Positions 1 to 28,749 of a stretch of 50,636 nt of DNA are shown one piece after another (the stretch's first letter is position 1; each line of letters opens with the position of its first letter). The notes under the pieces were generated by a model. The model ran no database searches and was not told where the DNA came from. It saw only the letters and a program-made list of their open reading frames with translations. Made by a program: the position numbers and the translations under genes. The DNA is taken from positions 1 through 50,636 of the IMG/VR virus record IMGVR_UViG_3300047178_000166; one strand, written 5' to 3'. The DNA is from a virus.

Positions 1-127
1 GGACCCGCCAGGGACGCCCTCGCCGTTCCGCATGCGGAGTTCGTGGGCGACCGGGGCACGGGCATCCGCGTCGTTCGGTGGCGCGACCCTGCCGCGTTCA
101 CAGTCGGCGTCGAGCGCAGGGAGTTCG
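1..127. repeat. Exact 127-bp terminal direct overlap, copy 1 (identical to 50510-50636); marks a circular contig
   Basis: Bases 1-127 recur base for base at 50510-50636. An ORF reads through the junction in frame. Confidence 0.95.
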
Positions 128-372
128 CCGCCGGGCACTCCCTTCTGGTCACCGACCCCGCACGCACCGTCGTCGACCTGTTCTGGCCGCTCTCCGGCGC
201 GACCGAGGGCGGTGCCCGCGAAGCCCTTGCCCGCCTCTACCGGACGGGCGGCGACGAAGCCATGAACCTCTGCACCACGTACGCGAACTCGTTCCGACCT
301 GCCCGCCGCGAAGCGGTCACCGCAGCCGTCGAGACGCTTAGGGAGACCGTGAAATGGACCGCCTTTCCGTAA
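1..372 (+). CDS. abiEi: AbiEi-family antitoxin, C-terminal part (5' end at 50228 across the junction)
   Basis: Same frame as ORF 43..372. It overlaps the start of the downstream AbiEii toxin gene by 19 nt, as is typical for this pair. Confidence 0.7.
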   Translation, partial: GPARDALAVPHAEFVGDRGTGIRVVRWRDPAAFTVGVERREFAAGHSLLVTDPARTVVDLFWPLSGATEGGAREALARLYRTGGDEAMNLCTTYANSFRPARREAVTAAVETLRETVKWTAFP

Positions 373-1286
373 CCATACCTTCCGACCGCCCCGACTGCAG
401 CAAGGTGGGAGAGAGCCGCTACCAAAAGCTCCGGGCGTCCGCGAAGGCGCAGGGCCGCGACCCCGCGTTCGCGTTCCGGCTCTACTGCTTCGAAGGCATG
501 CTCGCGCGCCTCCAGGCGAGCCGCTGGGCCGACGCCTGGGCCCTGAAGGGCGGCATGATCGTCCTGACCCTGCCGGGCGACGGGCTCGTGCGCGTGACCT
601 CCGACCTCGACTTCACGTGCAGCGGCGACGTCACCATGCCCGAGGTGATCGCGATCTTCCGCGAGCTCTGCGACTCGGTGCCCGCCGAAGAGGACGGGAT
701 CGTCTTCTCCCTGGCCGAGGGAAACTCGAGGCTGATGCGCGAGCAGTTCGAGCACCCGACCGCACGCCTCGCGATCCGGGCGACGCTGGTGAACGCGTGC
801 GCCGGGGTCGATGCCCCGTTCGTGGTCGATGTCACCGGCGCGGAAGGCCCGGTCGCGACGCGCGCCGTGACGCTGCCGAAGCTCTACAAGGGCCACGTGC
901 CGCCGACCGTGCCGGGCTACACCTGGGAGAGGGTGCTGGCCGAGAAGCTCCAGACCATCCGTCGCTGCGGCGCGGCCGCCGGGCGCATGCGCGACCTGTG
1001 GGACGTCTGCGCGATCAGCCGCCGCGTGGACCTCGACCTCGACGCGGTGGCCGAAGAGGTCGCCGCCGTGTTCGCGCTGCGCGGCACCGAGCTCGACGAC
1101 CCGCGCGGGTGGGACGGGCTGGCCCCGGCTTCCGCGACGGCACCCGACCGCGCGCGCAATTGGGACGGCCTGATGAAGCGTGCCGGGGCGGACCGCGACG
1201 CGCCGCGCGACCTAGCCGCCACCCTCGACGAGGTGCGCGACTTCGCGTCTCGGGTCGCGGCGCGCGCGCCCGCCCCGGCGATGTGA
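354..1286 (+). CDS. abiEii: AbiEii/AbiGii nucleotidyltransferase toxin (DUF1814-like)
   Basis: 310 aa. LKGGMIVLTLPGDGLVRVTSDLDFTC matches the NTase GG...S.DLDF motif, and the C-terminal RMRDLWDV motif fits. It is coupled to the upstream antitoxin. Confidence 0.8.
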   Translation: MDRLSVTIPSDRPDCSKVGESRYQKLRASAKAQGRDPAFAFRLYCFEGMLARLQASRWADAWALKGGMIVLTLPGDGLVRVTSDLDFTCSGDVTMPEVIAIFRELCDSVPAEEDGIVFSLAEGNSRLMREQFEHPTARLAIRATLVNACAGVDAPFVVDVTGAEGPVATRAVTLPKLYKGHVPPTVPGYTWERVLAEKLQTIRRCGAAAGRMRDLWDVCAISRRVDLDLDAVAEEVAAVFALRGTELDDPRGWDGLAPASATAPDRARNWDGLMKRAGADRDAPRDLAATLDEVRDFASRVAARAPAPAM

Positions 1287-1287
1287 C

Positions 1288-2232
1288 GTGAACCCGACTC
1301 CGGGCACCCTGGCGGCGTATGCGGCGCGCGGTATCGCGCTGCTGGCCAGGTGCGCCCGCGAGACGGGAGTGCCGCAGCCCGGACCGATGACCTTCGCGGA
1401 ATGGCTGGTCGACCAGCGTCCGGTGCTGAAGCCCGCGACCTGGCGGCTCTACCGCGCGTCCGCCGTGCACTTGCTGGAGGGTAACCCGGACACGGAAACC
1501 CGGCGCGCGCTAGAGCTGGTCGCGACCCCCCTGCCCTCCCCCGGCCAGCTGCCAGCGCGCACGTCGGCCTTGAAGCAGAAGAAGGTGGGCTCGGACGACC
1601 TGAAGGACCTCGTGCTGGCCCTGCGCCGCGTCGGGACGGACCTCTCGGCCCTGACGGAGGACTGGCTGGTCGCAGGGCTGATGACGGGCCTTCGACCCTG
1701 CGAATGGGGCGATGCCAACATTGGGCCGGAAATTGTCAACATTGGGGCCGGGCCCGTTCTGGTCGTCCGGAACCGGAAGGCGACCCAGGGTCGCGGCCTG
1801 GGAGAGTTCCGCCCCCTCGAGCTGGCAGGCTTCCACCCCGAGGACGTCGCGCGCATCCGGCGCATGGCCGACCGTGGGCGGGAGTGGACGGCTGCGGGGG
1901 TGTACGCGACCCGGCAGAAGTCGGCGGCCGACTGCCTCGCCCGGACGGCCCGCGCCCTCTGGCCCCGGCGCACGAGATACCCGACGCTGTATTCGGCCCG
2001 GCACCAGTTCTCGGCGCACGCGAAGTCGGTGCACTCGCAGGAGGGCGTCTCGGCCCTGCTCGGGCACGCAGTCGCGGAGACGGCCGTCTCGCACTACGGC
2101 AGGCGGTCTTCCGCGTGGGGCAAGTCGCGCCCCGTGGTGCCGTCGCCGTCACCGGCTGCGGTGGCCTCGGTCCGGTCGCGCACGAGGTCCCGGCCGAGCG
2201 ACCATACGAAGGTGCCGTCCTTCACCGGGTAG
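1288..2232 (+). CDS. int: Tyrosine recombinase / phage integrase family
   Basis: GTG start one base after the abiEii stop. Catalytic signature is present: GLRPCEW (Arg), SARHQFSAH (H-x-x-R), LLGH, and SHY (Tyr). The last ~45 codons overlap a convergent ORF and look like shadow sequence. Confidence 0.8.
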   Translation: MNPTPGTLAAYAARGIALLARCARETGVPQPGPMTFAEWLVDQRPVLKPATWRLYRASAVHLLEGNPDTETRRALELVATPLPSPGQLPARTSALKQKKVGSDDLKDLVLALRRVGTDLSALTEDWLVAGLMTGLRPCEWGDANIGPEIVNIGAGPVLVVRNRKATQGRGLGEFRPLELAGFHPEDVARIRRMADRGREWTAAGVYATRQKSAADCLARTARALWPRRTRYPTLYSARHQFSAHAKSVHSQEGVSALLGHAVAETAVSHYGRRSSAWGKSRPVVPSPSPAAVASVRSRTRSRPSDHTKVPSFTG

Positions 2233-2345
2233 GCGACCCCGGCGAGCGTCAAGTGCGTCACTCCGGTCAGGGGGCGAATGCGGTAGGCCTCGCGCTGCGC
2301 TTCCTGCGCGGCCTCCCACGCGGCCCTGCGTCTCGCCTCTCCCAT
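2094..2345 (-). CDS. Hypothetical protein (83 aa)
   Basis: ATG at 2345 with GGGAGA about 5 nt upstream. In the 2094-2232 overlap with int, GC at codon position 1 exceeds position 2 for this strand but not for int. Confidence 0.45.
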   Translation of the reverse strand: MGEARRRAAWEAAQEAQREAYRIRPLTGVTHLTLAGVAYPVKDGTFVWSLGRDLVRDRTEATAAGDGDGTTGRDLPHAEDRLP

Positions 2346-2578
2346 CGCTTTCTCCCGTCCCCGGATTTCTGTCCTGTGGCAGAATACCGCCGCGCAGCCG
2401 ATTTCCGGTAACGATTGCGGGTTTCCAGTAACGGCCCGGACGACTGCCCCCGTTACCTCGACTCGCGTTGCAACGGATCGCCGGAGCCGTGGATCGCACA
2501 AGCGGGGGTTTCTAGGCGGGCGCAAGATACGGTATTTGCACCGCAGAAACACCCCCACGTGCGGGGTATCCCACGGTG

Positions 2579-2618
2579 CTACGTGGGTGGCAACGTGGTC
2601 ACGTGGCAACGTGGCAAC
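2579..2618 (+). repeat. Iteron array A: tandem 8-bp units GTGGCAAC/GTGGTCAC
   Basis: GTGGCAAC GTGGTCAC GTGGCAAC GTGGCAAC at 2587-2618, preceded by degenerate units. Confidence 0.9.
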
Positions 2619-2640
2619 GGAGGGGGCGTAATCCCCCTCC
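2619..2640 (-). terminator. Hairpin GGAGGGGG-CGTAAT-CCCCCTCC just 3' of the 67-aa gene
   Basis: 8-bp perfect stem immediately after the stop at 2648. There is no U-tract. Confidence 0.4.
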
Positions 2641-2647
2641 GTGGACG

Positions 2648-2851
2648 TCAGATCTCTCCGACGAGCTTCTTGGCCTCGCCCTCGACGGCGGCGACGTCGG
2701 CCGCGATGTCGGCTTCGATGGCGGTCAGGATCTCGGCGGGTGCCGCGCGGAAGGCAGCGACCTTGGCACTCAGCCACGCCTCAAAGCGAGCGATCTCAGT
2801 CTCGGTCGGGGCGGCGGGCTCGGGGGCGGCTGCGGGGGCAACGTCGGTCAT
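2648..2851 (-). CDS. Hypothetical acidic helical protein (67 aa) flanked by iteron arrays
   Basis: ATG at 2851 with GGAG 7 nt upstream. Sequence begins MTDVAPAAAPEPAAPTETEIARFEAWLSAKVAAF. The longer ORF upstream of this start is translated iteron sequence. Confidence 0.55.
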   Translation of the reverse strand: MTDVAPAAAPEPAAPTETEIARFEAWLSAKVAAFRAAPAEILTAIEADIAADVAAVEGEAKKLVGEI

Positions 2852-2945
2852 GGGTCGGCTCCATCGGGGCGGCATGCCCCTTCCCCGAGGGTATGCGGGG
2901 GCGTCTCCCCGGCAAGCGAAAACAAGGCGCACCCCACCGCCGAAC

Positions 2946-2993
2946 GTGACCACGTGGGTCTGTGGCAACGTGGTCACGTGGCAACGTGGCAAG
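2946..2993 (+). repeat. Iteron array B: six tandem 8-bp units
   Basis: GTGACCAC GTGGGTCT GTGGCAAC GTGGTCAC GTGGCAAC GTGGCAAG. It shares a 30-bp core with array A. Confidence 0.9.
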
Positions 2994-3091
2994 ACGGCGG
3001 GGCGGGCTTGCATGGCGGGGACGGTGCGGGCAGGCTCCAGGCGTTTTCAACCGCGACGGAGTCGCACGTGAAGAGGTAGCCCGGAAACGAA

Positions 3092-3119
3092 GACACCCCC
3101 GGCTGCAACCGGGGGTGTC
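3092..3119. promoter_or_regulatory. 11-bp perfect stem-loop in the leader of the winged-helix gene
   Basis: GACACCCCCGG-CTGCAA-CCGGGGGTGTC. It is not downstream of any gene end. Confidence 0.4.
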
Positions 3120-3252
3120 GGGTCGATTGGTCGCCTGCCGGGACAGGGAAGAGGAACCCGATCCTGATAGGCCCGGAGCCCGCAGAACGCAAGCCGTATT
3201 GCGGACGCCGACGCTCGACCTGCGCCCGGCCGACCTCCGGAGGGAGGACAGG

Positions 3253-3936
3253 ATGGAGAGGAAGAGGCCCGTGCCGAGGGGCACGACGCACGTTCGGGAG
3301 TTCGAGCAGCCCGCGCTGCCGAAGGGTGGCAGGGAGGTCCTGGCCGCTGCGTGGAAGCTCGCGGGCGACGGGGTGCTCTCGCCCGGTGCCGTGACCCTTC
3401 TGTGCGCCATAGTGCGGCACGTGGGCCGTCAGGGCCGTTGCGTTCAGACGACCGAAAATCTGGCCAGATCGTGCGCTGTCAGATCGAAGAGCACGATCCG
3501 GGCGCGGGCGGCAGAGCTCGAGGCGGTCGGCCTGATGCTCCGGGTGCCGCTCAAGACGGGCCACGGGCGGGGCGCGGAGCAGGCACCGAACGGGTGGCTG
3601 GTCCTGCACGACGAGTCCGTCCTGGCGCGCCTGGGGGGTGCCGGATTCCGGCACCAACTCAGGATACAAAAAAAACAAAAGGGGGCAGACAGGAGGGCTG
3701 CTCGGGCGGAGAGGCTCGCCGAGGAACGCCGCGACGCGGCAGAGGACGCGGAGCGCGAGTGGGTCCCCGCGCCGGGCTCGCGGCCGTTGACGCGGGGACT
3801 GGAGGAACTGGACGACGTGCTCGGCTTCCTAGACTACCGCCGGGCGGGAGGGGCCTGGCCGCCGCCAGGATGGTCGATGCCCGCAGCCGCGAGCAGCGCG
3901 AGGGCGAGCCCCTTGGCGAGCTTCGTGGCCCTGTAG
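3253..3936 (+). CDS. Winged-helix DNA-binding protein, possible plasmid-type replication initiator or regulator
   Basis: ATG at 3253 after AGGGAGGA. LLCAIVRHVGRQGRCVQTTENLARSCAVRSKSTIRARAAELEAVGLMLRV looks like a wHTH. The last ~34 codons overlap the parA 3' end and look like shadow sequence. Confidence 0.5.
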   Translation: MERKRPVPRGTTHVREFEQPALPKGGREVLAAAWKLAGDGVLSPGAVTLLCAIVRHVGRQGRCVQTTENLARSCAVRSKSTIRARAAELEAVGLMLRVPLKTGHGRGAEQAPNGWLVLHDESVLARLGGAGFRHQLRIQKKQKGADRRAARAERLAEERRDAAEDAEREWVPAPGSRPLTRGLEELDDVLGFLDYRRAGGAWPPPGWSMPAAASSARASPLASFVAL

Positions 3937-4484
3937 GGCAGGCCGTCCGCGCCGCCGGGTGACAGGAGCTCGCTGAGCGGCGCCATGCGGGGCACGGGGG
4001 CCAGGAGGCGGTCTGGAGAGGCGGGAAGCGGCCAGGCCTCCCTGCGCCGCGCGTCTTCCTTCCTGGTCCCCCACGCGCTCGGCAGGCCGTAGGCGGCGGG
4101 CAATGCGTCGAGTGTGAGCCTCGCCCGGTCGAACTCGTGCCGCGCCGCCATGAACGGCACGACGGTCGCGAGCGGGCGGACCAGGGCGGACAGGGCGGCG
4201 TCGAGCTCGTGCCGGGCCGCCGCCCCATCGATCAGGACTACGGGGTCGTCCTCTAGGACCGCGAGCCCGGTCAGGATCGCGGCCAGCTGCTCGGGCTCCC
4301 GGCCGTCGAGCACGACGTAGCGTCGGCCGTCGTCCGTCAGGGGGAACTCGCGGGGATCGGTCGTCACTACGCAGGCGGGCACCGGTGGGCGCAGCATGGA
4401 CAGGCCCACGGCGGCGAGGTGCGCGGTGGTGCTCTTCCCGGTGCCGCCTTTGTCGCCCGAGACGAGGATGTATCTAGCGGGCAT
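3834..4484 (-). CDS. parA: ParA/ParF-type partition ATPase (deviant Walker A)
   Basis: MPARYILVSGDKGGTGKSTTAHL carries a KGGxGKS/T P-loop. About 216 aa. An alternative GTG start lies at 4493. It overlaps the upstream RHH gene by 11 nt. Confidence 0.8.
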   Translation of the reverse strand: MPARYILVSGDKGGTGKSTTAHLAAVGLSMLRPPVPACVVTTDPREFPLTDDGRRYVVLDGREPEQLAAILTGLAVLEDDPVVLIDGAAARHELDAALSALVRPLATVVPFMAARHEFDRARLTLDALPAAYGLPSAWGTRKEDARRREAWPLPASPDRLLAPVPRMAPLSELLSPGGADGLPYRATKLAKGLALALLAAAGIDHPGGGQAPPARR

Positions 4485-4773
4485 CGGGGTCACCCCACTC
4501 GCGCGCGATCAGGTCCTGCACGAGGTCCTGTGCACTGATCCGGCGTCCGTGCTCGGCCGTCTGGCGACCGGCGATCGTGTGCAGGTGCCGGAGCACGGAG
4601 ACGGGCAAGCGGATGTGGAAGCTCTCCCGCGTCTCCCGCCTGTCGTCCCGGCCCCGTGGCATAGTCGCAGGCTCCGGCGCGGACGCGGGAGACGGGACGG
4701 AGGGCGTGACGGCCCGGATGCGGGCGGCGAGGTCGACGGCGGCGGCGGGCGGCTTGGTTTGGGGTGCGGGCAT
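4474..4773 (-). CDS. Ribbon-helix-helix protein, candidate centromere-binding/autorepressor partner of ParA
   Basis: ATG at 4773. ESFHIRLPVSVLRHLHTIAGRQ fits an RHH beta-strand plus helix. It is translationally coupled to parA. Confidence 0.6.
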   Translation of the reverse strand: MPAPQTKPPAAAVDLAARIRAVTPSVPSPASAPEPATMPRGRDDRRETRESFHIRLPVSVLRHLHTIAGRQTAEHGRRISAQDLVQDLIAREWGDPDAR

Positions 4774-4785
4774 GGCTCTGTCTCC

Positions 4786-4909
4786 GTTGCCACGTGGGAA
4801 CGTGGGTCGGTAGCACCGTGGGCTCGTGAGTGGCAACAGTCGAGGGAACGTGCGTGCATGGGTTGGTGTGTGGTCACGTGGCAACGTGGCAACGTGGCAA
4901 CGTGGCAAA
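4786..4909. repeat. Iteron array C: inverted GTTGCCAC, degenerate units, then GTGGTCAC plus four GTGGCAAC-type units
   Basis: GTTGCCAC lies at 4786-4793 next to the RHH start. Five perfect or near-perfect tandem units lie at 4870-4909. Confidence 0.9.
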
Positions 4910-4964
4910 GAGAAGGGCGTCCCGAAGACCGGGACGCCCTGGGAAGGCTGCGGCGATGGCGGGG

Positions 4965-5321
4965 TCACATCCCGGCGGGATACGTCGCCTTCTTGTGGCC
5001 GCCGAGCTCCAGGCCGAGGAAGGACACCTCGAAAAGGAGCACGACGTCATCGATGTCGTTGGCGCGCTGGCGGGCCTGCCGGGAGTACCGCTGGGCGATC
5101 CGGCACAGGGCGGCTGGGAGCCAGGTCGGGGTCGGACGCTCCCCCGACACCCAGCGGCGCACCAGCCGGACGTCGAGCCCGTCACGAGGGCCGCGCGGGT
5201 GGTACTGGCCGAGGTCGCGGGCCAGGCAGGCCTTCCAGTCGTCGCGGTCCGCGTAGGTCGTCTCCCCGAAGCGCAGGAGGTGGTGGGGGGTCAGCTGGGG
5301 GGTCGGCGGAAGGTCGGTCAT
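4965..5321 (-). CDS. Hypothetical protein (118 aa), possible HTH regulator
   Basis: ATG at 5321 with GAGGAT 7 nt upstream. VRRWVSGERPTPTWLPAALCRIAQ resembles the recognition region of Cro/Xre-type HTH proteins (weak). Confidence 0.6.
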   Translation of the reverse strand: MTDLPPTPQLTPHHLLRFGETTYADRDDWKACLARDLGQYHPRGPRDGLDVRLVRRWVSGERPTPTWLPAALCRIAQRYSRQARQRANDIDDVVLLFEVSFLGLELGGHKKATYPAGM

Positions 5322-5357
5322 GGCGTCATCCTCGGCAGGCGGTCAGGGGCGACCGCT

Positions 5358-5397
5358 CTTGTCCCTGACGGTAGGGACAAGAGGTTGCACGTGTCAA
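5358..5397 (-). promoter_or_regulatory. Promoter-operator module 1
   Basis: On the minus strand: TTGACA, 18-nt spacer, TACCGT, overlapped by the palindrome CTTGTCCCT-N6-AGGGACAAG at 5358-5381. It lies about 40 nt upstream of the 118-aa gene. Confidence 0.6.
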
Positions 5398-5456
5398 CGG
5401 TCGAGATCCTGGCGTGGTGCCTGCGCGTGCGCCAATCCTCGCGGCAGGAGGTCGCC

Positions 5457-10445: not shown

Positions 10446-12314
10446 GTGACCCAACCCGCAACGCGCCGCAGGCAGGAGCCCCCGACATACTCGGGCCGCG
10501 ACGCCGTGGCCGTGCTCTACCCGTGGCACCAGGACTTCGAATCCGGCACGGGATACCGGACGGGCGCGCATCCGGGCAAGCACTTCTCGGCCGCTGGCAC
10601 CGTGGCCTACCGCTCCGGGCTGTTCTTCCAGTCCGAGCTCCGGACGTGGTCGACGATCGGCGAGCTGCACGACGTCGTGTGCGACCTCGCGGTCGAGGGG
10701 GCGGCGTTCCCCGTGCGCTCGGCACCGGCACACGACGGGAGCTACATGCGGCGCACGAAGGTCCGCAAGGGCAAGTGCCCGCCCGGACTGAAGCACGTGC
10801 CCCTGCGCTGGCTCCCGGTCGACGCCGACAAGCTGCCGAACGTGATGGGGCTCGACCCCCGCCGCGACCCGGTGGGGACGCTGCGCTGGATCGCCAGCCT
10901 GCTCGGACCCGAGTTCCGAGGCGTCACCTGCTCGGCGCACTTCTCGTCGTCATCGTGCGTTGGCGTGCCCGAGGGACAGGCTCCCACGCACCTATCGGCA
11001 CGGCTGCACTTCCTGCTCGACGCGCCGCTGATGGAGCTCGGGTGCCGGGCGGTCCTGAAGCTGCTCTGCGCCAGGGTCAGGGCGTTCTTCAGGGACGGGC
11101 ACGGGATAGAGTTCGCCCCGCGCGTGAAGCCCATCGACCCCAAGATTGCCGACATTCAGCAGCCGATCTACTGCGCTCGGCCGACCTTCGACGGCGTGGC
11201 CGACCCCCACGAGGTCACCGGGCGCGCCTTCCTTCTGGAGGGCACCGCCGACGTCGTGAGCCTGGAGGACCTGAGGTCTGCGGTCCGCGACGCGCAGCCG
11301 GAGCCGGAGGCCGTGCGCGAGGGGGAGAGGCCGTCAGAGCGTAGGCAGCGTAGGCAGCGCGAGAGGGCGGCGCGGACGTCGAGGCAGACCAAGGTGCCGG
11401 GATCGGTCCTGCCGCTCGCCGCGTCCCTGAAGCTGATCACGGCCTACCGCGAACGGCTGGACGCGGCGATCAAGGGTGTCGGCCGGGAGCACTACCTGGC
11501 GACCTGCTACAACCTGTTCAGCCGCCGCTCCGCGCTGGAGATGGTCGCCCTGGCCCTGCACAGGGGCGGTCTGCACGAGGGGACCAGGGACGAGTTCTCG
11601 ACGATGATCGCGTCGGCCGTGGTCGCGTCCATGCCGCTTAGCCGGGATGTAACGGACGAGATGGTCCGAGCCGAGGTCCGTCCGCTGCTCGTGCTCGTCT
11701 GCGGTGCCGAGTGGGTCCGGGTCGAGTGGGAAGAGGCCGGGGCCGACGCGTCTATCCTGGCGCGCTACCGCCGGGCCGTCGCGGGCGAGAGGGACCGCCA
11801 CGGCCGGGACCCCCGCTACACGTATTCGAAGGCGCGGCTGCTGCGCGAGTGGGAGCCGACCTACGCCGAGATCCTGGCCCTGGGGCTGCGCTCGCTCGCG
11901 AACGACGCCGACCGTGCGGCCGCCGAACGCGAGGCCGACCGGATGGCCACGGGCGCGCCGAGCAGGGACGAGTGGCTGGCCGCAGCCCGTGCCCTGGCTC
12001 CCCGGGCGCACGCGCTGCGGGCCGATGGCCTGAGCTGCCGCAAGGTCGCAGACCGCCTGGGGGTGAGCCTCGGCAAGGCCCTCCGGCTTCTGGCCCTGTC
12101 GCCCGAGACGGTGGCGCAGCTGGCAGAGACACAGGAGAGCACCGTGACCGAAGAAGAGCAGCAGACCGTGCCCGTGGCGGCGACGGTGGCAGAGCCCGCG
12201 ACCGAGCCGACGAACGTGGTGGCCTTCAGGGCTCCGGTGAGGCCGGGTATCCCCGACTTCCTGCGGGTCCGGGTGCCCTCCAGCGGAAAGCAGCTGTTGC
12301 ACCGGACCGCCTGA
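10446..12314 (+). CDS. Replication protein: N-terminal primase-polymerase (AEP)-like region, C-terminal HTH
   Basis: 622 aa. GTG start after GAGAGG. Candidate AEP motifs are LPVDADK (DxD), SARLHFLL (sxH) and PIDPKIADIQQPIYCARP. C-terminal HTH is LSCRKVADRLGVSLGKALRLL. No Walker A motif is seen. 21-bp iterons lie immediately downstream. Confidence 0.45.
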   Translation: MTQPATRRRQEPPTYSGRDAVAVLYPWHQDFESGTGYRTGAHPGKHFSAAGTVAYRSGLFFQSELRTWSTIGELHDVVCDLAVEGAAFPVRSAPAHDGSYMRRTKVRKGKCPPGLKHVPLRWLPVDADKLPNVMGLDPRRDPVGTLRWIASLLGPEFRGVTCSAHFSSSSCVGVPEGQAPTHLSARLHFLLDAPLMELGCRAVLKLLCARVRAFFRDGHGIEFAPRVKPIDPKIADIQQPIYCARPTFDGVADPHEVTGRAFLLEGTADVVSLEDLRSAVRDAQPEPEAVREGERPSERRQRRQRERAARTSRQTKVPGSVLPLAASLKLITAYRERLDAAIKGVGREHYLATCYNLFSRRSALEMVALALHRGGLHEGTRDEFSTMIASAVVASMPLSRDVTDEMVRAEVRPLLVLVCGAEWVRVEWEEAGADASILARYRRAVAGERDRHGRDPRYTYSKARLLREWEPTYAEILALGLRSLANDADRAAAEREADRMATGAPSRDEWLAAARALAPRAHALRADGLSCRKVADRLGVSLGKALRLLALSPETVAQLAETQESTVTEEEQQTVPVAATVAEPATEPTNVVAFRAPVRPGIPDFLRVRVPSSGKQLLHRTA

Positions 12315-12341
12315 CGGCAGCGGGAGGACTGCGCCGACTCC

Positions 12342-12396
12342 ACCCGGATCACCGCCGACGCAACCCGGATCACCGCCGACGCAACCCGGATCACCC
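12342..12396 (+). repeat. 21-bp direct iterons, 2.6 copies (ACCCGGATCACCGCCGACGCA)
   Basis: Perfect copies at 12342-12362 and 12363-12383, with a partial copy at 12384-12396. The array starts 28 nt after the replication gene stop. Confidence 0.9.
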
Positions 12397-12856
12397 CGGA
12401 ACGGGCAAGCCGGGGCGTGCAGGGAACGGGGGCAGCACGTGCCTGCTTGGTCCGTGGCGGGCAACGGGAACGGGACGGGACACCGGAGGGCAGGGAGGTG
12501 AACGGGTGCCGTGGGATGTCCCTGCCGGGACGGATGGCCACGGGCTCCGTGCGGCTTCACCCATCCGACCCCAGGTACCCGTACGGATGGGGCTGGCTAA
12601 GGATCTGGCTCTCTTCCTGCTCCAGCAGCTTCCCCTTCCATAGAGCCCGACGCTACCCGGATCAGCCGAACTGCCCTGTCCCGCTCGCGGCAACCCGTCA
12701 CGACGGCACAAGGAAACCTGCCGTCGCTTGCTAGTAAACCCTTGCGGTTTTGCCGCTGCCCAGGCATAGTCCGGGTGTCGGCAGCGGACGGTGGTGCGTC
12801 TGCGGCAGGCGTCTCGGGTGACCGGCGGATGGTGGTGCGTCCTCCGGTCTGTTCAG

Positions 12857-12897
12857 AAAAGGAAGCGGCTCGGGGCAACTCGAGCCGCTTTCCTTTT
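12857..12897 (+). terminator. Rho-independent-type terminator
   Basis: AAAAGGAAGCGGCTCG, an 8-nt loop, then CGAGCCGCTTTCCTTTT followed by GTG. It is a 16-bp stem with one bulge and a T-run. Confidence 0.7.
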
Positions 12898-13025
12898 GTG
12901 CGGCGATCCGTCCCACGGCAAGGAAAAACGGCCAATAAAGTGGACCGCTCGCATTTAGTCCTTTGAGCAGGGCAGACGGTATGTAGCATCGAGGTAACGG
13001 ATTTCCCGAACCCGAGGGCCGCACC

Positions 13026-13331
13026 CTGCTTCACGCACGCTACTACACGCGCGAGCAAGACGCGCTGCTGGTCCGGCTTGCCGAGGCCGGGACGCCGTGG
13101 GCCGTCATCCATGCGCGCCTGTGCAAGCCGTGCACAATCGAGAGCCTGCGGAGTCGTTACCTCAGGATGGAGACGGCAGAGGCCCGCGCCGCCCGGCTCG
13201 GCAGGGTCGTCGACCGCGAGCCCGGAGGGAGGCGCAGGACCTGCCTCCGGTGCAGCCGTCCCTTCGAGAGCGAGGGCGTTCACAATAGGCTCTGCACGCC
13301 ATGCTCGGACTGGATCCGGGAATGCGGCTGA
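13026..13331 (+). CDS. Myb/SANT-like plus zinc-ribbon small protein; no ATG/GTG/TTG start available (candidate CTG start)
   Basis: Open frame from 12987 to TGA at 13329-13331. YYTREQDALLVRLAEAGTPWAVIHARLCKPCTIESLRSRYLRM is Myb-like, and CLRCSRPFESEGVHNRLCTPC is a CxxC...CxxC ribbon. GAGGG lies 7 nt before CTG 13026. The first ATG (13167) falls inside the domain. Confidence 0.4.
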   Translation: MLHARYYTREQDALLVRLAEAGTPWAVIHARLCKPCTIESLRSRYLRMETAEARAARLGRVVDREPGGRRRTCLRCSRPFESEGVHNRLCTPCSDWIRECG

Positions 13332-17801: not shown

Positions 17802-20800
17802 GTGACCGCATACGTTTCCGCCGCGAACGGCAATCACAACGTGGCCGCGACATGGACCCCGGCCGCCGTCCCCGGCGTCGGGGATACGGTGACCATCAAC
17901 CACGTCGTGACGGTGCCTGCGGGCGTGACTTGGCTGCTCGGTGCCAGCCCCGGCAGCTGCGTACAGGGCTCCGCGTCGGCCGCGGTGACCCAGGTCGTGC
18001 CCGGTATCACGGTGAACTCGTACCACGGCTACGCGAACTGGCTCCAAAGCGCGATCTTGACCAATAACCCGACGTTTGCGAACGCGGGCGGTGCCTCTGG
18101 CGGGCAACTGGTCGTGGCGGCGGGCGCGACCGTGCAGATCCGGGGAGATATCGTGCTGAACGGCGGGCCGATGACGCTCGCGGCGGGCGCGCAGCTGGTG
18201 TTCGACACCTCGGCGGCACCGGCCGGGACCGTGTATCGGTGCGAGGTCGCGAACCCATACAACATCAGCACGGGCGTCCTGACCTGCAACGGCACGGCGG
18301 GCTCGCGTTGCCGCATTTCCGGCACGTCGGCGAACAACTGGTGCATCAGCGGAGGCTGGAGGACGGTCGGCGTCGAGGGCTACACGCCCTACGCCGATTG
18401 GGGCGCGGCGATGTTCTACTACACGGACACGATCCAGGGCGGAATCCCGGCCTCGACGCTCCAGATGTGCCAGACCTGCGCGACGAACACGAGTGCCAGC
18501 GGCCTGAACGTGACGGGCGGCGTGCCGACGATCGTGCTCTCGAACGGTGCCACGGCGACCTACCAGTACAACTCCGCTGCCTCGCTCTTCTGGCAGACGA
18601 CCCAGGCCCGCACCTACACGAACACGCGGCAGCTCCGCATGGGCCCTGCGGGCATCACGTGGAACGGCGCGACCGTCAAGGACTCGAACGGCAGCACCCG
18701 ATCCATCCTGTCCGGTTACTCGGTGACGCAGAGCGGCTCGACCCTGACGCTGACGACGACCTGGAGCGCGCCCGCGACTGCGGTCGGCGTCCCCGTATGC
18801 CTGATGACCGATGGATCGCTGCTTTCCTACGCGAGCGGCAGCGGCACCTCGACGCTCGTCTTCTCCGGCCCGGCCAGCCAGTCCTTCGTCTCCACGGCGA
18901 GCTGCTTCGTCGACACCTTCATCAACATCGCGGCGGGGACCATCACGGACGCCTCCGGCGGCGCGGTGCCCCAGTACGGCGAGGGCGGCGGCTGCTGGTT
19001 TGCCGTTCAGACGTCGTGGATCAACGGGTCGACCACGGTCACGGACGGCCTTCCCTGGTGGTCCTTCAGACCCGCCACGAGCGCAGCCGCCGCTTCCGCG
19101 CGCAGCCTGACCTTCGGCAACTCCACCGCGCAAGGATGCACCTCCGTTCACGTCGGAGACGGCGTGCACACGCCCTCCGGCATCAACTTCTACGGGTCGG
19201 ACTTCATCGGCGGCGTCGACAACCTGGCGATCGTGAACGGCAGCCAGGGCAGCGGCATCACCGAGGGTGGCGGCGATATCGTGCTGCTGACGGGCGGTCG
19301 CATCGGCACCGGACCGAACGAGCTGCGCCTGTTCTCGGGCTGCAACTTCGCCAGGCGCGTCGTCCTCCAGAACGCCGACGACTTCACGTTCAGCGAGTGC
19401 GTGTTCGGCGACGACCTCTACATGGGCGTAGCTGGCAGCAAGAACCTCACCGTGCAGCATTGCCTGCACGTCGTGCCCAGCGGATACGTCGCGGGTGGCC
19501 AGAACTACTTCGTTTCATTCGGCTCGAAATACGATAGCAACATCTTCTGCTTCGATAGCCCGACGCTCCGCAACTCGCACGGGCTTTTCTGCGGCTTCCA
19601 GTCCGGTGCCCTGACGGGTGTTTCCGGGACCCCGCAGTATGCCTACATCACGAACAACATAGTCGAAGCACAGCGCGCCAATGCTTCCGAAGGCGGCAAT
19701 TGGATGGCCTGCACGCCAATCACGGGCGGCAGCACCTCTGCGAGCGTGCCCTACAATACTTGCGTCGTTACCGGCAACATCGTCGTTCCGCAATACAACA
19801 GCATCGCGGGCGCGGCTGGCCCCATGTCAGGCTACTACCAGGCGAACGGCGTGCTGACGATGGACGCGGCACCGGGGCAGTTGAACTGGAAAACCCTTGT
19901 ACAGGGCAATACTTTCCTGACGCAGGCGACCGGAAACGGGTGCATCGCGGCGAACGAGGGCGGCGGCACCAGCGGGCAGTTCGCGGGCATCCTCGACAAC
20001 ATCTTCTGGTCGCCCGCCTCGACCGCCGTTCCGCACGGCCCGAGCTACTGGGACCGCCACGACAACACGGTCGCAGTGGACGAGTGCCCGGCAGCGGCGT
20101 TCGACTACAACGTGCACTACAACGGTCAGACGACCGGATACTGCAACACGGGCGGCACGATTACCTCGGGCGGCAACAGCAACGCGTTCACCGGGGGCAC
20201 GAACTACCCGACCGGGCCGTACACGGGCGCGCTCTACTCGACAAGCCTCATGCCAGGCGTGCACGACGCGCGCTTCACGGGCGCGACCCCTTTTCTCGAC
20301 CAGGACCGCAGCACCTGCAAGTTCGACGCCGTGAACGGCGGGCCGGGCACCGTCGCGTCGCTCGTCGGCCAGCTTTTCCTTCGCAACGCGAACGGGATCG
20401 GCGGGCTCTACGGGCTACCCGCGAGCTACAACGCGGCCTACACGGTCGACGGCGTGTTCGGCTGGATCAAGGCGGGCTTCTCCCCGCAGGTCACGGCGGC
20501 TAACCAGGCCCTACAGAACGGCAGCTCGACGGGCGGATACGTGGGCGCGGTCGCGCCGACCCTGCCCCCCGCTGCGGTCATCACGTCCGTCGCCGCGAGC
20601 CCGAGCACGGGCGACCAGGGCGTCGGCAGCACGGTCACGCTGACCGTCGCCTTCACCCGCGCCCTGACTTTCTCCGGAGGCACCCCGACCCTATCGCTGA
20701 ACTCCGGCGGCACCGCGACGTACGTCGGCGGGAACGGGGGAACCGCCTACACCTTCACGACCACGGTCGCGGCGGGACAGTCGGCGGCGTCGCTCCAGGC

Positions 20801-23800
20801 GACGGCCTACAACGCGAACGGCGGCACGACCGTCGACCAGTTCGGCACCGCAGCCAGCCTCGGGTCCGTCCCCGCGATAGCCGCGAGCCCGCAGATCGAC
20901 GGCGTCGCGCCGACCCTGGCCGCCCTTGCCTTCAGCCCTTCCACGGGCACCCTGAAGGCGGGCGCGTCCGTCGCGATCACCCTGACCGCGAGCGAGCCCG
21001 TCACGGTCACCGGCTCCCCGACCCTGAGCACGAACCTCGGGCCTGCAGCCTTCAACGCGGGCGCGAGCACGGCGACCTCGCTGGTGTTCGCGTTGACGGT
21101 CCCGGCTGGTCAGACCGCCTCCCCCGTCGCGGTTTCCGCGTTCAACTTGGGCGGCGGCACGGTCCTCGACGGCGCGGGCAACGCGCTCGTGCAGACGCTG
21201 CCCGCCCCGGGCGCGGCCCCCAACGCTGACGGCGTGGCCCCCGTGGTGTCCTCCGTGGTGTTCGCGCCGACATCCGGCTTCCTGGGGGTTGGCGCGACCT
21301 ACGCGATTTCGCTTGCTGTCAGCAAGTCGGTGACCGTGACGGGCTCCCCGGCCCTCACGATGAGCGACGGCAGCACCGCCCCGCTGAACGCGGGCGCGAG
21401 CACCCCTACCTCGCTCGTTTTCGGCGGCACCGTGCACGCGGGGGCTACCGCGAGCCCGCTCGGCGTATCCTCGCTGAACCTCAACGGCGGCACGATCAAG
21501 GACGGCCCCGGCAACGCCCTGAACGCTGCGGGCGCGACCTCCGCTCCCACGGGCGGCGCGCCTTCCGCTGACGGCGTGGTCCCGGTCGTCTCCTACGTGC
21601 ACGCGAGCCCGCCTTCGGGCGACGAGGGCGCGGGCCAGACGATCACGTTCACTGTGGCGACCAGCAAGGCCGTTACGGTTGTCGGCGCGCCGTCCCTTAC
21701 GCTGAACGACGGGCGCAGCGCGGCCTTCGTCGCGGGCTCGAGCACCCCGACCTCGCTCGCGTTCACCTACACCGTGCAGCCGGGCGACGTCGCGTCGCAG
21801 CTCTCGGTCACCGCCTTCGCCATGAACGGGGCGACGATCCTCGACGAGGCATCGAACGCCCTGGTCGCGACGGGCGCGGTCGGCGTCCCAACCGGCGGAT
21901 CTCCGCAAGTCGACGGCGTCATCCCGGTCGTGTCCTCCGTGGCCTTCTCCCCCGTCTCCGGCACCGTCCCGGCGGGCGGCACCATCACGATCACCCTCGC
22001 CCTGAGCAAGGCGATCACCGTCACGGGCGCGCCCTCGCTGACCCTCTCCGGAGGCGCGTCGGCCGCTTACGTCCCTGCCAGCTCGACGCCGACCTCGCTC
22101 GCGTTCACCTACACGGTGCAGCCCGGATACGCCGCCGCCCCCGTGTCGGTGTCTGGCCTGTCCCTGTCCGGGGCGACCGCCAGGGACGCCGCCGGGAACT
22201 CGCTGAACGCGTCCGGTGCGACCTCCGCTCCCACGGGCGGCGCGCCTTCCGCTGACGGCGTGGCCCCGGTCGTGTCGTCCGTCTCCGTGTCCCCGCAGGG
22301 TGCCGACCTCGGCGTCGGCGCGGCGGCGACCTTCACCCTCGCCCTGAGCAAGGCCGTGACCGTATCCGGCGCGCCCTCGCTGACCCTGACGGACGGCGGC
22401 AGCGCGAGCTACGTCGGCGCGAGCAGCACCCCGACCGCCCTGGCCTTCCGCTACGCGGTCCGCGCGGGCGACGTCGCGCAGGCCCTGGGCGTGTCCGCCC
22501 TGTCCCTGAACGGCGGGACCGTCACCGACGCCGCCGGGAACGCGCTCGTGTCCTCCGGCGCGGCCGGGACCCCTGCGGGAGCACCGCAGGTCGACGGCGT
22601 CGCACCGACCGTATCAGGCCTTTCCGCCGCCGCCGGGACCTACGGGGCGGGTGCCACGGTCGCGATCACCGTCGCCCTGAGCAAGGCTTGCAGCGTCTCG
22701 GGCGGCGCGCCCGTGCTGACGACCCCGTTCGGTGCGGCTACCTACTCCGGGGCCGCTTCCGGCTCCCAGGCCCTCGTGTTCGACCTCGTGGTGCCAGCTG
22801 GTGCCACGGGTGCTCTGACCGTGGGCCCGCTGACCGGGACGATCGCCGACGCGGCCGGGAACCCGCTCGTGGCCAGCGGTGCCACGGGCATCGTGTCCGG
22901 TATCACGCTGGACGGCGTGGCTCCCGTCGTGGCCTCGGTCACCGCCGCCGCAGGAAGCTACTTCTCGGGCGAGCAGGTCCTGATCGCGGTCGCGACCAGC
23001 AAGGCGGTCACCGTCTCGGGGACCCCGAGCCTGGCAACCTCCATCGGCACCGCGACCTACCTGCCGGGCAGCAGCAGCGCGACCGTGCTCGAGTTCTCGC
23101 TGACCATCGCATCGAACGCGGCCCTTGGCCCCATCTCGACGACGGGCCTGACCGACGCGGGCGGATCCATCGTCGACGAGGCCGGGAACGCACTGGTCGC
23201 GACCGGGGCCGCGTGCGCCCTGCCCGGCGTGGTCGTGGTGCCGAACTCCCCGACCGTCACCGGGGCGACCGCCACGGCCGGGACGTATCCTGCGGGCTCG
23301 GTCTTGAGCATCGTGCTCGGCTTCAGCATGGCCGTCGCGTTCGCGGGCCCGTCCCCCATCCTCGACCTCAACATCGGCGCGGCGCACCTCGCGAGCACGA
23401 CGGCGACCACGGCGACGTTCTCCGTCGTCGTCCCCGCCGGGGCGCAGGCCGCCGTCGTCGTGACCGACCTGAACCTGAACGGCGGGACGATCACGTCTGT
23501 GGCGTCCGGTGCCGCCCTGTCCGGGCCCTGCACCTTCTCGCTCGCGGGCGTCTTTGCCGCTGGCGCGCCGCCCGCCGTGACCGGAGTGTCCGCCCCGGCC
23601 GGGGAATACGGCGCGGGTGCCACGATCCTGGTCCGCGTGGCGACGTCGGCCGCGACCCGCCTGGTCGACGCCGCGCAGCCGCCCGTGCTCTGGACCGCGC
23701 TCGGCCCCGCCTACTACGTCGCTGCCAGCTCGACCCCGGTCAGCCTGGCGTTCGACCTCGTGGTCCCGCCCGGGGCGTCCTCTTCCTCGCTGGTCACGAC

Positions 23801-26573: not shown

Positions 26574-26583
26574 GAGACGGTCG

Positions 26584-26823
26584 ATGAGGCGGGGGCAGTC
26601 GGGGACCTGGTGGATCGTCAACCTGAGCTACCCCGGGGAGCCGCCCGTCTATTGGACGGCCGACGTGCGTGGCCAGGGGCATCACGGACTGTCCTTCGAT
26701 CACCGGCAGGCGGCGCAGTTCGACACGCCCGAGCAGGCACACTTCAACGCCCGCCTGCTCGGGCTGGCCGACGCGCTGCCGCACTACCGGGTCGAACACC
26801 ACGCCTGGATCGACGGCGTCTAG
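26584..26823 (+). CDS. Hypothetical protein (79 aa)
   Basis: ATG at 26584 with AGGAG 7 nt upstream. Confidence 0.5.
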   Translation: MRRGQSGTWWIVNLSYPGEPPVYWTADVRGQGHHGLSFDHRQAAQFDTPEQAHFNARLLGLADALPHYRVEHHAWIDGV

Positions 26824-26862
26824 TTGACGCTTGCGTCCGTTGTCCCTACCATCAGGGACAAG
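26824..26862 (+). promoter_or_regulatory. Promoter-operator module 2
   Basis: TTGACG, 17-nt spacer, TACCAT, overlapped by the palindrome TTGTCCCT-ACCATC-AGGGACAA at 26840-26861. It is nearly identical to the reverse complement of module 1. Confidence 0.6.
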
Positions 26863-26987
26863 AGGGCAGTTCCCTCGGCACCACACGGAGACGCACCAAT
26901 GCGAGAAAAAGAATCCCCGCCGCACGCACGACCCTGACTACTACGACCTGCCGCTTCCGAACGGCCTCACCCTCGGCCGTAGCGCGG

Positions 26988-27746
26988 TCAGGGCGATACC
27001 CTTTTCTTGATAGCATCAAGGTAACCCGTCTCGCGCTCGATACCAATGGCACGGAATCCTCCAGCCAACGCAGCTGACAACGTGCTGCCGCTCCCGGCGA
27101 ACGGGTCCAGCACGAGGCCGCCCGGTGGGGTAACTACTTCGATGAGGCACCCCAGAAGTTCGGCTGGCTTCTCCGTGGGGTGGTCGCCGTTACGGACAGG
27201 CTTGCAGGACAGCACGTTGCCGATGTCGCGACGCTGCGGCGGATTGCCCGTTCCGTTCGTGAAATGCAGCACGAACTCATGTTGATTGCGGAAGCAGGAG
27301 CCCATGCCGAAATAGGTCTTGTTCCACACCAGAACGCCGCAGTGCTTCAGGTCGGCACTCTCGATTGCGGCTGCCAGATGCGGAGCCATGCGCCAGTCGA
27401 TAAAAACCAGGGCGTGGCCTCCGGGAACCAGCAGATCGCGCCATAGCAAGGCACACTCCCGCATCATCCATACAAAGCTATGCGCCGTCAGGGCGTCATT
27501 GCCAAACCAATCGGCGGCACCCATTCCACGTGTCATGGCCTTCCTAGTCCCCTTGGATGCCTCCATCCTGGTGCCGCTGGAATACGGAGGGTCGGTTACA
27601 ACCGAGTCCACGCGGACGCCACGGTCTACCAATGCCCGCATGACCTGCAAGCAGTCGCCAATATAAATCTCGGATTGGCCATTATCGTGCGCCGGTGCCA
27701 GGGTAATGCTGGGAGCCTCTATGCTCAGTTTGGTGAGATTGGTCAT
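26988..27746 (-). CDS. Beta-class amino DNA methyltransferase (N6-adenine or N4-cytosine), orphan
   Basis: ATG at 27746 after AAGGAG. DPPY comes first (VVTDPPYSS), then HPTEKP and FAGSGST at the C-terminus. The region looks lower in GC than its neighbours. Confidence 0.85.
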   Translation of the reverse strand: MTNLTKLSIEAPSITLAPAHDNGQSEIYIGDCLQVMRALVDRGVRVDSVVTDPPYSSGTRMEASKGTRKAMTRGMGAADWFGNDALTAHSFVWMMRECALLWRDLLVPGGHALVFIDWRMAPHLAAAIESADLKHCGVLVWNKTYFGMGSCFRNQHEFVLHFTNGTGNPPQRRDIGNVLSCKPVRNGDHPTEKPAELLGCLIEVVTPPGGLVLDPFAGSGSTLSAALAGGFRAIGIERETGYLDAIKKRVSP

Positions 27747-27796
27747 GCGAGTCTCCTTCGGTATGGCAACGGCAAACCTTCGCTGCCGTCGATGCA
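27744..27796 (-). repeat. Duplicated leader cassette, copy 1 (ends exactly at the methyltransferase ATG)
   Basis: 31 nt (one mismatch), a 10-nt variable block, then 12 identical nt, compared with 28042-28094. Confidence 0.85.
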
Positions 27797-27810
27797 AGAT
27801 GCGTTGGCCT

Positions 27811-28044
27811 TCACCGTCTCGCGGCCGAGCCAGCCGCAGCGTCCCTCCACCGAGGATTTCTCAGGGGGACCCCGCCGTCAAAGGATTTATTCGTGGGCGC
27901 GCAACGCGTGGCTTGCGAGAGGGGGGGGCGTCCGCCCCGGCGATCTCGAGCGCGAGGGCGGCTGAACCGTGACGTGCTCCGCTCCTCCTTAGAGAGCAGG
28001 CGCAGGACAAGGATATCTTCCGGGCTCAGGTCTTCGAGTTTCAT
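27811..28044 (-). CDS. Hypothetical small protein (77 aa)
   Basis: Its ATG sits at the same position in the duplicated leader cassette as the methyltransferase ATG. The C-terminal half is low complexity. Confidence 0.35.
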   Translation of the reverse strand: MKLEDLSPEDILVLRLLSKEERSTSRFSRPRARDRRGGRPPLSQATRCAPTNKSFDGGVPLRNPRWRDAAAGSAARR

Positions 28045-28094
28045 GCGAGTCGCCTTCGGTATGGCAACGGCAGCCCCTCAGAGCCGTCGATGCA
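28042..28094 (-). repeat. Duplicated leader cassette, copy 2
   Basis: See copy 1. Confidence 0.85.
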
Positions 28095-28185
28095 GGGCCG
28101 GGGCCGCTCCGCAGGGGGCGGCCCTTTCCTTTTGCGCTGGCCGCAGAGGGCGCGGGGTGCGATCCTGTCGGCCGGGAGGAAGGTC

Positions 28186-28745: not shown

Positions 28746-28749
28746 AGGA

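Follow-up and report, generated by a model that had tools for sequence, protein, structure and literature searches.

A type Ib-like partition gene pair and three 8-bp repeat arrays as a candidate maintenance module in a circularly assembled myovirus genome

Whether a tailed phage genome carries what it would need to be kept as a plasmid is the question raised by a repeat-rich locus at positions 2570-4910 of the IMG/VR record IMGVR_UViG_3300047178_000166, the whole analysed stretch of which (50,636 nucleotides (nt), 69% G+C) is referred to here as the window. Such a state is familiar from P1 and N15, phage-plasmids that combine a full set of tailed-phage genes with plasmid partition and toxin-antitoxin genes. 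A preliminary description of the window had proposed that the locus unites a partition gene pair, preceded by tandem repeats, with the iterons of a theta-type replicon, and that the prophage may be maintained as a low-copy plasmid. On balance, region 2570-4910 is probably the maintenance module of a temperate myovirus, at the core of which would lie a type Ib-like partition cassette composed of a ParF-like ATPase gene, a small gene for a candidate centromere-binding protein and an array of 8-base-pair (bp) repeats.

The repeats form three arrays, here called A, B and C (Table 1). The unit GTGGCAAC occurs in ten exact copies in the window, against 1.56 expected, a count that is reached in none of 100 shuffles, and all ten fall into three clusters, at 2587-2618 (three copies), 2962-2985 (two) and 4786-4901 (five, of which one, at 4786-4793, is on the minus strand). 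The three 48-nt windows that score highest for period 8 across the 50.6 kb coincide with arrays A, B and C, which are also detected by TRF, and at least four contiguous good units are present in every array. Array C opens at its distal end with a well-conserved block, GTGGTCAC (GTGGCAAC)x3 GTGGCAAA, continues through roughly ten degenerate units, among which the register slips once by 4 nt, and ends at 4786-4801 in an inverted pair, GTTGCCAC followed by GTGGGAAC, which lies 13 nt from the ATG of the small gene, its inverted unit adjoining the Shine-Dalgarno sequence. An array of 124 bp upstream of the gene pair, with an inverted unit on the promoter-proximal side, is therefore present as had been claimed. 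Read in register from 2587, array A consists of GTGGCAAC GTGGTCAC GTGGCAAC GTGGCAAC, and array B, read from 2946, of GTGACCAC GTGGGTCT GTGGCAAC GTGGTCAC GTGGCAAC GTGGCAAG. These two arrays have 31 identical bases in common (2587-2617 = 2962-2992; a 30-bp core had been noted before), flank a gene for a protein of 67 amino acids (orf67) and sit upstream of a gene for a winged helix-turn-helix (wHTH) protein, as previously described.

On the minus strand, the order of hairpin, array and open reading frame (ORF) is repeated three times. The hairpin at 4940-4914 is followed by array C and then by the small gene and the ATPase gene, that at 3119-3092 by array B and orf67, and that at 2640-2619 by array A and a possible 83-amino-acid ORF; the last hairpin has a putative role as a terminator. 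The 83-amino-acid ORF (2094-2345, minus strand) overlaps the 3' end of the neighbouring recombinase gene by 139 nt, and its high G+C content at third codon positions (GC3) may simply mirror the recombinase frame. No family match to orf67 was found in Pfam, PHROG or NCBIfam.

The ATPase contains VSGDKGGTGKST, with GDKGGTGKST as its deviant Walker A motif, and its ORF overlaps that of the upstream small gene by 11 nt if translation starts at the ATG at 4484, or by 20 nt if it starts at the GTG at 4493. Both ORFs are present and carry a high-GC3 coding signal, in agreement with the coupled arrangement first suggested. A search of the PDB with the single ATPase sequence gave P-loop matches only, and a word-indexed protein search returned two relatives, against 256, mostly of about 200 amino acids, in an exhaustive profile search. 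In 51 full-length members K15, G16, G17, K20, T45, D46, D89 and G90 are nearly invariant; conserved features of the family are the lysines of Walker A, the TD (A') motif, GRxY and (I/V)DGGGNR. The best match to the profile of this family is ParF of plasmid TP228 (4dzz; E=2.9e-15), in an alignment that spans residues 1-139, from Walker A through the strand after Walker B, with the A, A' and B regions aligned. The Pfam families CbiA and AAA_31 are matched by 35 (E<=0.01) and 31 of the 51 members, respectively, and by the window protein in neither case. An AlphaFold2 (AF2) model of the window ATPase is of low confidence, with a predicted local distance difference test (pLDDT) value of 55; it superposes on ParF at 3.3-3.6 Å over approximately 144 columns and is consistent with a ParF fold. 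Homology to ParF at the level of the family thus suggests that the ATPase and the small gene are a divergent type Ib-like partition pair.

The small protein is 48% identical to the counterpart that stands beside the closest relative of the ATPase (locus L001). This identity includes the N-terminus, which establishes the 99-amino-acid start over the 62-amino-acid call made by one source. A word-indexed protein search with the small protein returned one relative. Ten small proteins of the family have in common an N-terminal (K)GxxDLAAxL motif (DLAARI in the window), a low-complexity linker rich in proline and alanine, and a C-terminal pattern, hxhxLR - helix - GRxh(S/T)xQ - helix, that corresponds to strand-helix-helix. 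In an AF2 model of moderate confidence, built from a two-sequence alignment, residues 50-93 have pLDDT values of 79-87 and form an extended segment followed by helices at 58-75 and 81-93, a predicted shape that is what the monomer of a ribbon-helix-helix (RHH) dimer looks like. Comparison of the family with known RHH proteins by hhalign, using references for ParG, Arc and CopG, each confirmed against the PDB, and one for omega, gave in-register alignments with Arc (E=0.0023 over 37 columns) and CopG (E=0.0026). Taken with the model, these alignments make an RHH fold of the small protein likely. The small-protein profile retrieved nothing meaningful from the PDB or Pfam, and no solved StbA-like structure was found there either.

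The association of the two genes recurs elsewhere. In all nine relatives examined, the small gene (encoding 86-124 amino acids) precedes and overlaps the start of the ATPase gene. Plasmids from cultured bacteria carry five of these pairs, in many cases next to rep genes, and a phage-like replicon of Azospirillum carries another, which is 38-40% identical to that of the window. On plasmids the pairs adjoin RepA, Rep O or TrfA genes, with the rep gene directly following the par pair in three plasmid relatives, and several relatives are on MOBF/MPF_T or TrwC-bearing elements. The best 48-nt window upstream of the small gene is most periodic at 8 bp in eight of the nine; this periodicity exceeds all 200 shuffles in six of them and all but one shuffle in a seventh. 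The sequence of the unit varies between elements (Table 1), and a fixed register with co-varying units is what would be predicted for cognate pairs of centromere and centromere-binding protein. The relative at L001 and the Azospirillum element have a second array after the ATPase stop codon, so that arrays stand on both sides of the operon; in Azospirillum the second par array is followed by a different repeat, CCGTGGGGTTAGGACAC (about 18 bp; four direct copies and one inverted), before repA. With tblastn, the ATPase was matched on 15 plasmids and in none of 50,697 phage records, and when viral contigs were scanned with the alignment of the ATPase, no match was obtained, the window itself also being missed. 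A blastn search with positions 2300-5400 against phage and plasmid collections gave no match. Both proteins are annotated as 'hypothetical protein' in every annotated public record examined, among them those of plant-pathogen plasmids such as the well-known virulence plasmid pFKN of Pseudomonas syringae, and no description of the CCTCACAA array of pFKN or of the small-protein/ATPase family was found in the literature. The proposal of a type Ib-style partition cassette is borne out to the extent that the ATPase family is nearest to ParF and that the paired small gene and upstream 8-bp array recur in relatives.

Table 1. Positions of features in and around the candidate maintenance module, and repeat units found beside related gene pairs (coordinates are those of the window unless another element is named).
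Feature	Position	Strand	Description
AbiEi-like antitoxin gene, 3' part	43-372	+	ORF starts near 50228 and spans the contig junction
AbiEii nucleotidyltransferase toxin gene	354-1286	+	Type IV toxin-antitoxin/abortive infection; Pfam PF08843, E=2.3e-22, above cut-off
Divergent tyrosine-recombinase-like protein gene	1288-2232	+	Candidate dimer resolvase or integrase
Unassigned repeat site	2402-2476		TTTCCGGTAACG and TTTCCAGTAACG (TTTCCrGTAACG copies) 20 bp apart, then inverted GTAACGG (CCGTTAC), just downstream of the recombinase gene
Array A	2573-2618		Four well-kept units from 2587, degenerate units back to ~2573; period-8 score 0.65
Hairpin	2619-2640	-	8-bp stem, GGAGGGGG-CGTAAT-CCCCCTCC; right after the orf67 stop, abuts array A
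orf67	2648-2851	-	67-amino-acid acidic, helical orphan between arrays B and A; GC3 0.84
Array B	2946-2993		Six units at 8-bp register; occupies the gap between the divergent orf67 and wHTH genes; period-8 score 0.675
Hairpin	3092-3119	-	12-bp stem, terminator-like, between the wHTH start and array B
wHTH protein gene	3253-3936	+	Orphan, 227 amino acids; possible replication initiator or regulator; GC3 0.84
ParF-like deviant-Walker-A ATPase gene	3834-4493	-	216-219 amino acids; partition motor candidate
Small gene	4474-4773	-	99 amino acids; candidate centromere-binding protein
Array C	4786-4909		124 bp, ~16 units of 8 bp, directly upstream of the small gene; period-8 score 0.80, the window maximum
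Hairpin	4914-4940	-	Terminator; closes the upstream 118-amino-acid gene and insulates array C
21-bp direct repeats	12332-12396, 12647-12667		Three contiguous CCGACGCAACCCGGATCACCG and a fourth copy 270 bp away, in the 760-bp non-coding gap 12315-13077
P. syringae pFKN (NC_002759.1), array	~10638-10900		~33 perfect tandem CCTCACAA units upstream of an unannotated small-gene/ParF-like pair
Antarctic Pseudomonas plasmid pGLE121P3, array	around 2042 of locus L013		CCTCACAA unit, as in pFKN
pPF72-2, array			CAGTTGTG-type units
Azospirillum element, array			AACGTTnn units
Relative L005, array			TACGATnn units
Relative L001, array			NNNNNNAC units

In the mechanism proposed here, the small protein, probably an RHH dimer with a flexible N-terminal tail, would be produced in translational coupling with the ParF-like ATPase. 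Its dimers would coat the contiguous 8-bp units of array C, forming a partition complex and also repressing the operon, and its N-terminal DLAAxL motif would contact nucleoid-bound ATPase and stimulate it, with the consequence that copies of the phage genome would be spaced apart before cell division. As a hairpin precedes and a minus-strand ORF follows each of arrays A and B, the small protein probably also controls neighbouring genes, namely orf67 and possibly the divergent wHTH gene. The arrangement resembles omega of pSM19035, which acts at three promoters, or parC1 and parC2 of pB171.

Several characterised systems bear on this scheme. In the parFGH system of TP228, 20 boxes are placed at 8-bp spacing, the parH region comprises 11 direct boxes and one inverted box, and the sites serve as both centromere and operator (PMC3130281). 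The window resembles TP228 in its small deviant-Walker-A ATPase of about 200 amino acids, for which ParF is the best solved-structure match, in a small partner with a flexible N-terminal tail and a strand-helix-helix C-terminus (as predicted here), and in degenerate boxes that recur every 8 bp immediately before the operon, most of them direct and one inverted. It differs in having three dispersed arrays rather than one contiguous parH-OF region, and GC-rich 8-mers rather than ACTC boxes with AT-rich spacers. In pSM19035, omega binds arrays of heptads at the copS, delta and omega promoters, at least four contiguous repeats being needed (PMC9499535). There, as in the window, several arrays of contiguous short repeats (7 bp in that plasmid, 8 bp here) stand upstream of different genes; in pSM19035 all of them are bound by one RHH protein that both regulates and forms partition complexes. 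The delta and omega genes of pSM19035 are, however, separate transcription units, whereas the pair in the window is translationally coupled, and pSM19035 is a Firmicute plasmid, whereas the window is a phage whose closest module-protein homologues are in Proteobacteria. According to construct descriptions, par2 of pB171 (parC1-parA-parB-parC2) is a type Ib system with centromere arrays on both sides of the operon (PMC4270457). This layout is like that of L001 and the Azospirillum element, and arrays B and A of the window are likewise on the far side of the operon, although they are cut off from it by a convergent gene and enclose another small gene.

A further likeness is to StbA/StbB of R388, in which the gene for the DNA-binding protein comes first, that for a Walker-type ATPase second, and short direct repeats lie upstream, as in the window; StbA, unlike the small protein, is a helix-turn-helix (HTH) protein with 9-bp repeats. 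Neither an Escherichia coli nor an R388 record was among the 15 plasmid matches of the ATPase.

The same arrangement of hairpin, array and minus-strand ORF would be expected if the arrays were only transcriptional operators, the small protein being the autorepressor of a three-promoter regulon and the ATPase having no role in segregation. RHH proteins are commonly repressors, and the inverted pair of units in array C lies right against the small gene's ribosome-binding site. Such a reading has nevertheless to accommodate the obligate pairing with a ParF-like ATPase in nine of nine relatives, the location of the pair on plasmids and beside rep genes, and arrays of up to approximately 33 units (in pFKN), which are far beyond the needs of an operator. 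Moreover, operator and centromere roles coexist in TP228 and pSM19035. An exclusively regulatory role is therefore considered very improbable.

The preliminary description had assigned arrays A and B to another function, as iterons beside a wHTH replication initiator of the theta type, which would make 2570-3936 a mini-replicon next to the par cassette. The wHTH protein is weakly similar to Pfam HTH_36 (E=3e-4, below cut-off) and, in PHROG, to two families of 'replication initiation protein' (7e-4 and 7.5e-3, both sub-threshold), and array B is placed 260 bp ahead of its start codon. A role as Rep is possible for this protein, because rep genes directly follow the par pair in three plasmids. 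The protein is an orphan, however: no homologue but itself was found among 5.8 billion proteins, it has no match in the PDB, and it is unrelated to the RepA of Azospirillum. Arrays A and B are built from 8-mers that follow one another without gaps and have the same sequence as the par units, unlike iterons of 17-22 bp at a helical spacing of about 22 bp. Par-type arrays flank the operon in L001 and in Azospirillum, and in the latter the iterons of RepA are a separate repeat, distinct from the 8-bp arrays. No DnaA box was found, nor was there any AT-rich stretch close to arrays A and B, the sites of lowest G+C being at 28.6, 30.2 and 6.8 kb, and a set of 21-bp iterons is present elsewhere in the window. 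Arrays A and B are thus unlikely to serve the wHTH protein as iterons, and the mini-replicon as a whole is judged quite improbable. Since these arrays have the par unit in the par register, contain at least four good units each and lie on the far side of the operon like the second arrays of relatives, they are more likely to be candidate sites at which the small protein would bind in addition to array C.

The wHTH gene and the ATPase gene converge and overlap by 103 nt (3834-3936). The sole terminator-like hairpin for the minus-strand par transcript is that at 3119-3092, beyond the wHTH start, and the par transcript may run antisense over the whole of the wHTH gene. The wHTH gene contains, in its zero frame, an A_AAA_AAA run (3667-3675, within ATACAAAAAAAACAAAAG) that is very unusual at the base composition of the window and is shaped like a -1 slippery heptamer. 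Programmed -1 frameshifting there was considered and rejected, as the zero frame stays coding, with a GC3 of 0.82 after the site.

The 21-bp repeats at 12332-12667 have the look of a classical iteron origin and are an alternative candidate for that role; a function in packaging or late control is also possible. The gap in which they lie also contains a GCGGAyGGTGGTGCGTC pair spaced 41 bp apart and a hairpin at 12857-12896. A 622-amino-acid ORF (10446-12314) was examined as a possible protelomerase or Rep and was dropped: it has no family or phage match, one weak plasmid match and no similarity to genes of the Pantoea stewartii phage-plasmid ppDSJ01, the structural relative described below.

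The window comprises a complete myovirus genome that assembled as a circle. The contig ends overlap exactly over 127 bp, and an AbiEi-like ORF of about 218 amino acids crosses the junction uninterrupted (50228 to 372); reading through the junction in this way indicates that the circle is not a repeat artefact, and the closed circular contig on which the proposal of plasmid maintenance was partly built is upheld. An independent 9.4-kb assembly of the same sequence, Logan contig ERR9963765_962354, stops about 870 bp past the ATPase gene, in or next to array B, and the 31-nt core common to arrays A and B probably breaks short-k-mer assemblies at that array. The set of virion and packaging genes is complete and of myovirus type, with the large terminase (TerL), portal, protease, major capsid protein, sheath, tape measure and tail fibre all present. 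This structural block is syntenic with that of ppDSJ01, with protein identities of 31-64% (TerL 64%, portal 44%, sheath 47%), and the terminase is also 64% identical to that of Acetobacter phage phiAP1, an integrative phage with the same gene layout. A scan of GTDB genomes with TerL gave a single match, 36% identical, in one fragment of an Acidobacteriota metagenome-assembled genome.

In the position where the module stands, ppDSJ01 carries a telomerase (protelomerase), a large RepA and ParA/ParB genes, and phiAP1 an integrase that sits directly after the late genes. The module therefore occupies the variable lysogeny slot of this phage lineage. The linear phage-plasmid ppDSJ01, with its protelomerase, large RepA and an HTH-type ParB accompanying ParA, differs from the window, in which these are lacking. 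A second comparison is provided by plasmid unnamed5 of Azospirillum thermophilum CFH 70021 (NZ_CP029360.1), a 54.9-kb element from a cultured isolate that carries a siphovirus-like genome, including terminase, tape measure, tail tube, lysozyme and Gam genes. On this plasmid the RHH-like/ParF-like pair is followed by RepA, which has iterons of its own, by Dam and by a tyrosine recombinase (one of two such recombinases in total); the toxin-antitoxin genes BrnT/BrnA and HicB and a large protein with a ParB domain are also present. It appears to be an unrecognised phage-plasmid. It differs from the window in its siphovirus-like phage type and in a Rep and a recombinase that are unrelated to the window's proteins.

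The divergent tyrosine-recombinase-like protein encoded next to the module gave no match in Pfam (PF00589 included), PHROG, NCBIfam or the PDB. With tblastn, homologues of 33-37% identity over more than 80% of the length were found on 104 plasmids and in none of the 50,697 phage records. The recombinase and three plasmid homologues conserve R136 (LRPxEW), K164, R238-H239 (RHQ), H260 (GH) and Y270, the first His position of the tyrosine-recombinase set being Tyr or Ser in the four homologues; two of these four family members match Phage_integrase (PF00589), at E=0.012 only. Downstream of the gene, the repeat site at 2402-2476 includes a perfect 10-bp palindrome, CGTTGCAACG, which resembles two inverted array half-units, and CNGTAACG is present in the window at 8 copies where 3.6 are expected, a weak enrichment only. 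This site may be a recombination site (attP or res) or an operator.

A phage-plasmid lifestyle is plausible because the gene pair is found on a phage-like Azospirillum plasmid, because the structural genes are akin to those of ppDSJ01, and because homologues of the recombinase are on plasmids only. Of the earlier proposal, this part is supported, while the iteron replicon at arrays A and B is not. With moderate confidence, then, the prophage would most likely be kept as a low-copy circular plasmid.

Several observations weigh against the partition module and the plasmid state. TP228 has the ATPase gene first, which is the usual type Ib order, whereas in the window and its nine relatives the small gene is first. 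The window ATPase is below curated cut-offs, with only a P-loop match in Pfam (E=0.014-0.06), a ParA-like match in PHROG (E=0.0084) and none in NCBIfam, and the small protein is recognised by no model of Pfam, PHROG or NCBIfam. The likely RHH fold is drawn from a shallow AF2 model and pairwise hhalign values of approximately 2e-3; alignments of the family with ParG (E=0.27) and with omega (E=0.38) were not significant, and Foldseek gave no match to the model. A scan of the region for promoters gave no sigma-70-like sites, leaving the promoter-operator reading of the arrays without support from motifs. One member of the ATPase family (L003) is a chromosomal-looking orphan that lacks the small gene. 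Among the window proteins, no replication initiator or origin was identified with confidence by Pfam, PHROG or homologue searches. The structurally related phiAP1 integrates, and its integrase gene fills the slot that the recombinase gene takes in the window; circular assembly does not separate an episome from virion DNA.

Some of these observations are also what would be expected of an integrative temperate phage. In such a phage the recombinase would be the integrase, with attP in 2346-2572, and the ParF-like pair would stabilise the excised or replicating genome, exclude relatives by incompatibility, or act as a regulator. The position of the recombinase gene directly after the late genes, where phiAP1 has its integrase, and the repeat-rich non-coding stretch beside it are in keeping with integration, as are the want of a confidently identified initiator and the partnerless ATPase at L003. 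Against this, the recombinase belongs to a family found on plasmids and not in the phage records searched, below the Phage_integrase threshold, and no tRNA gene or other obvious attachment signature was found in the window. In addition, the assembly is circular, with an intact gene over its junction and no host flanks, and the par pair is otherwise present on plasmids and one phage-like plasmid. Integration is accordingly regarded as unlikely, and maintenance of the prophage as a low-copy plasmid is preferred.

Upstream of the recombinase gene lies an AbiE pair. The AbiEii toxin is identified by its Pfam match (Table 1), and its partner, for which no Pfam match was found, is called AbiEi-like from its position directly upstream of, and overlapping, the AbiEii gene. 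An addiction or defence function is possible for this pair, and as a potential addiction module next to the region it speaks for a plasmid prophage.

Two further regions distinguish the structural block from those of ppDSJ01 and phiAP1. Between the large terminase and portal genes is a single ORF of 2350 amino acids (17802-24854, plus strand; GC3 0.90), the sole family match of which is to gpW, a head-tail joining protein, over the last 60 residues. At the position of gpW, ppDSJ01 and phiAP1 have a separate gene for 85-100 amino acids (annotated as 'gpW' in ppDSJ01 and 'phage protein' in phiAP1), and in the window about 2280 residues of unknown function seem to have been fused or inserted upstream of gpW. 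A 4.8-kb island (26574-31383) parts the portal and protease genes, which are adjacent in both relatives. Within it are a DPPY-motif DNA methyltransferase ORF (26988-27797, minus strand), the genome's spot of lowest G+C (28635-28734, 44% G+C) with GTAACGTTATC-type repeats, a 392-amino-acid protein that has an HTH at its C-terminus (29023-30201, minus strand), and a second palindromic region of low G+C (30229-30328).

Phage-plasmids and type Ib partition are both well known, and the mechanism proposed for the module is not new. What is new is the sequence family, which is unannotated, missed by curated models, has the small gene first and candidate centromeres in an 8-bp register, together with its presence in a phage and the three-array layout. 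It is conceivable, although doubtful, that the pair represents an uncharacterised and widely scattered family of partition systems, defined by the DNA-binding gene in first place, the DLAAxL motif, the fixed 8-bp register and element-specific units, and that the small protein of the window acts through its three arrays, together with antisense par transcription over the wHTH gene, as a master switch that couples segregation to the control of replication or lysogeny. Recognition of the ParF-like pair and its 8-bp arrays would improve the annotation of plasmids and phage-plasmids, would provide a small stability cassette (about 1.1 kb) that may be of use in hosts of high G+C, and would add another case in which one RHH-type protein serves several dispersed arrays. 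One structural lineage would then hold, in the same slot, three solutions to lysogeny, namely an integrase, a linear telomerase plasmid and a circular one that has a type Ib-like par system, and would be useful for studying how phages switch between integration and life as a plasmid.

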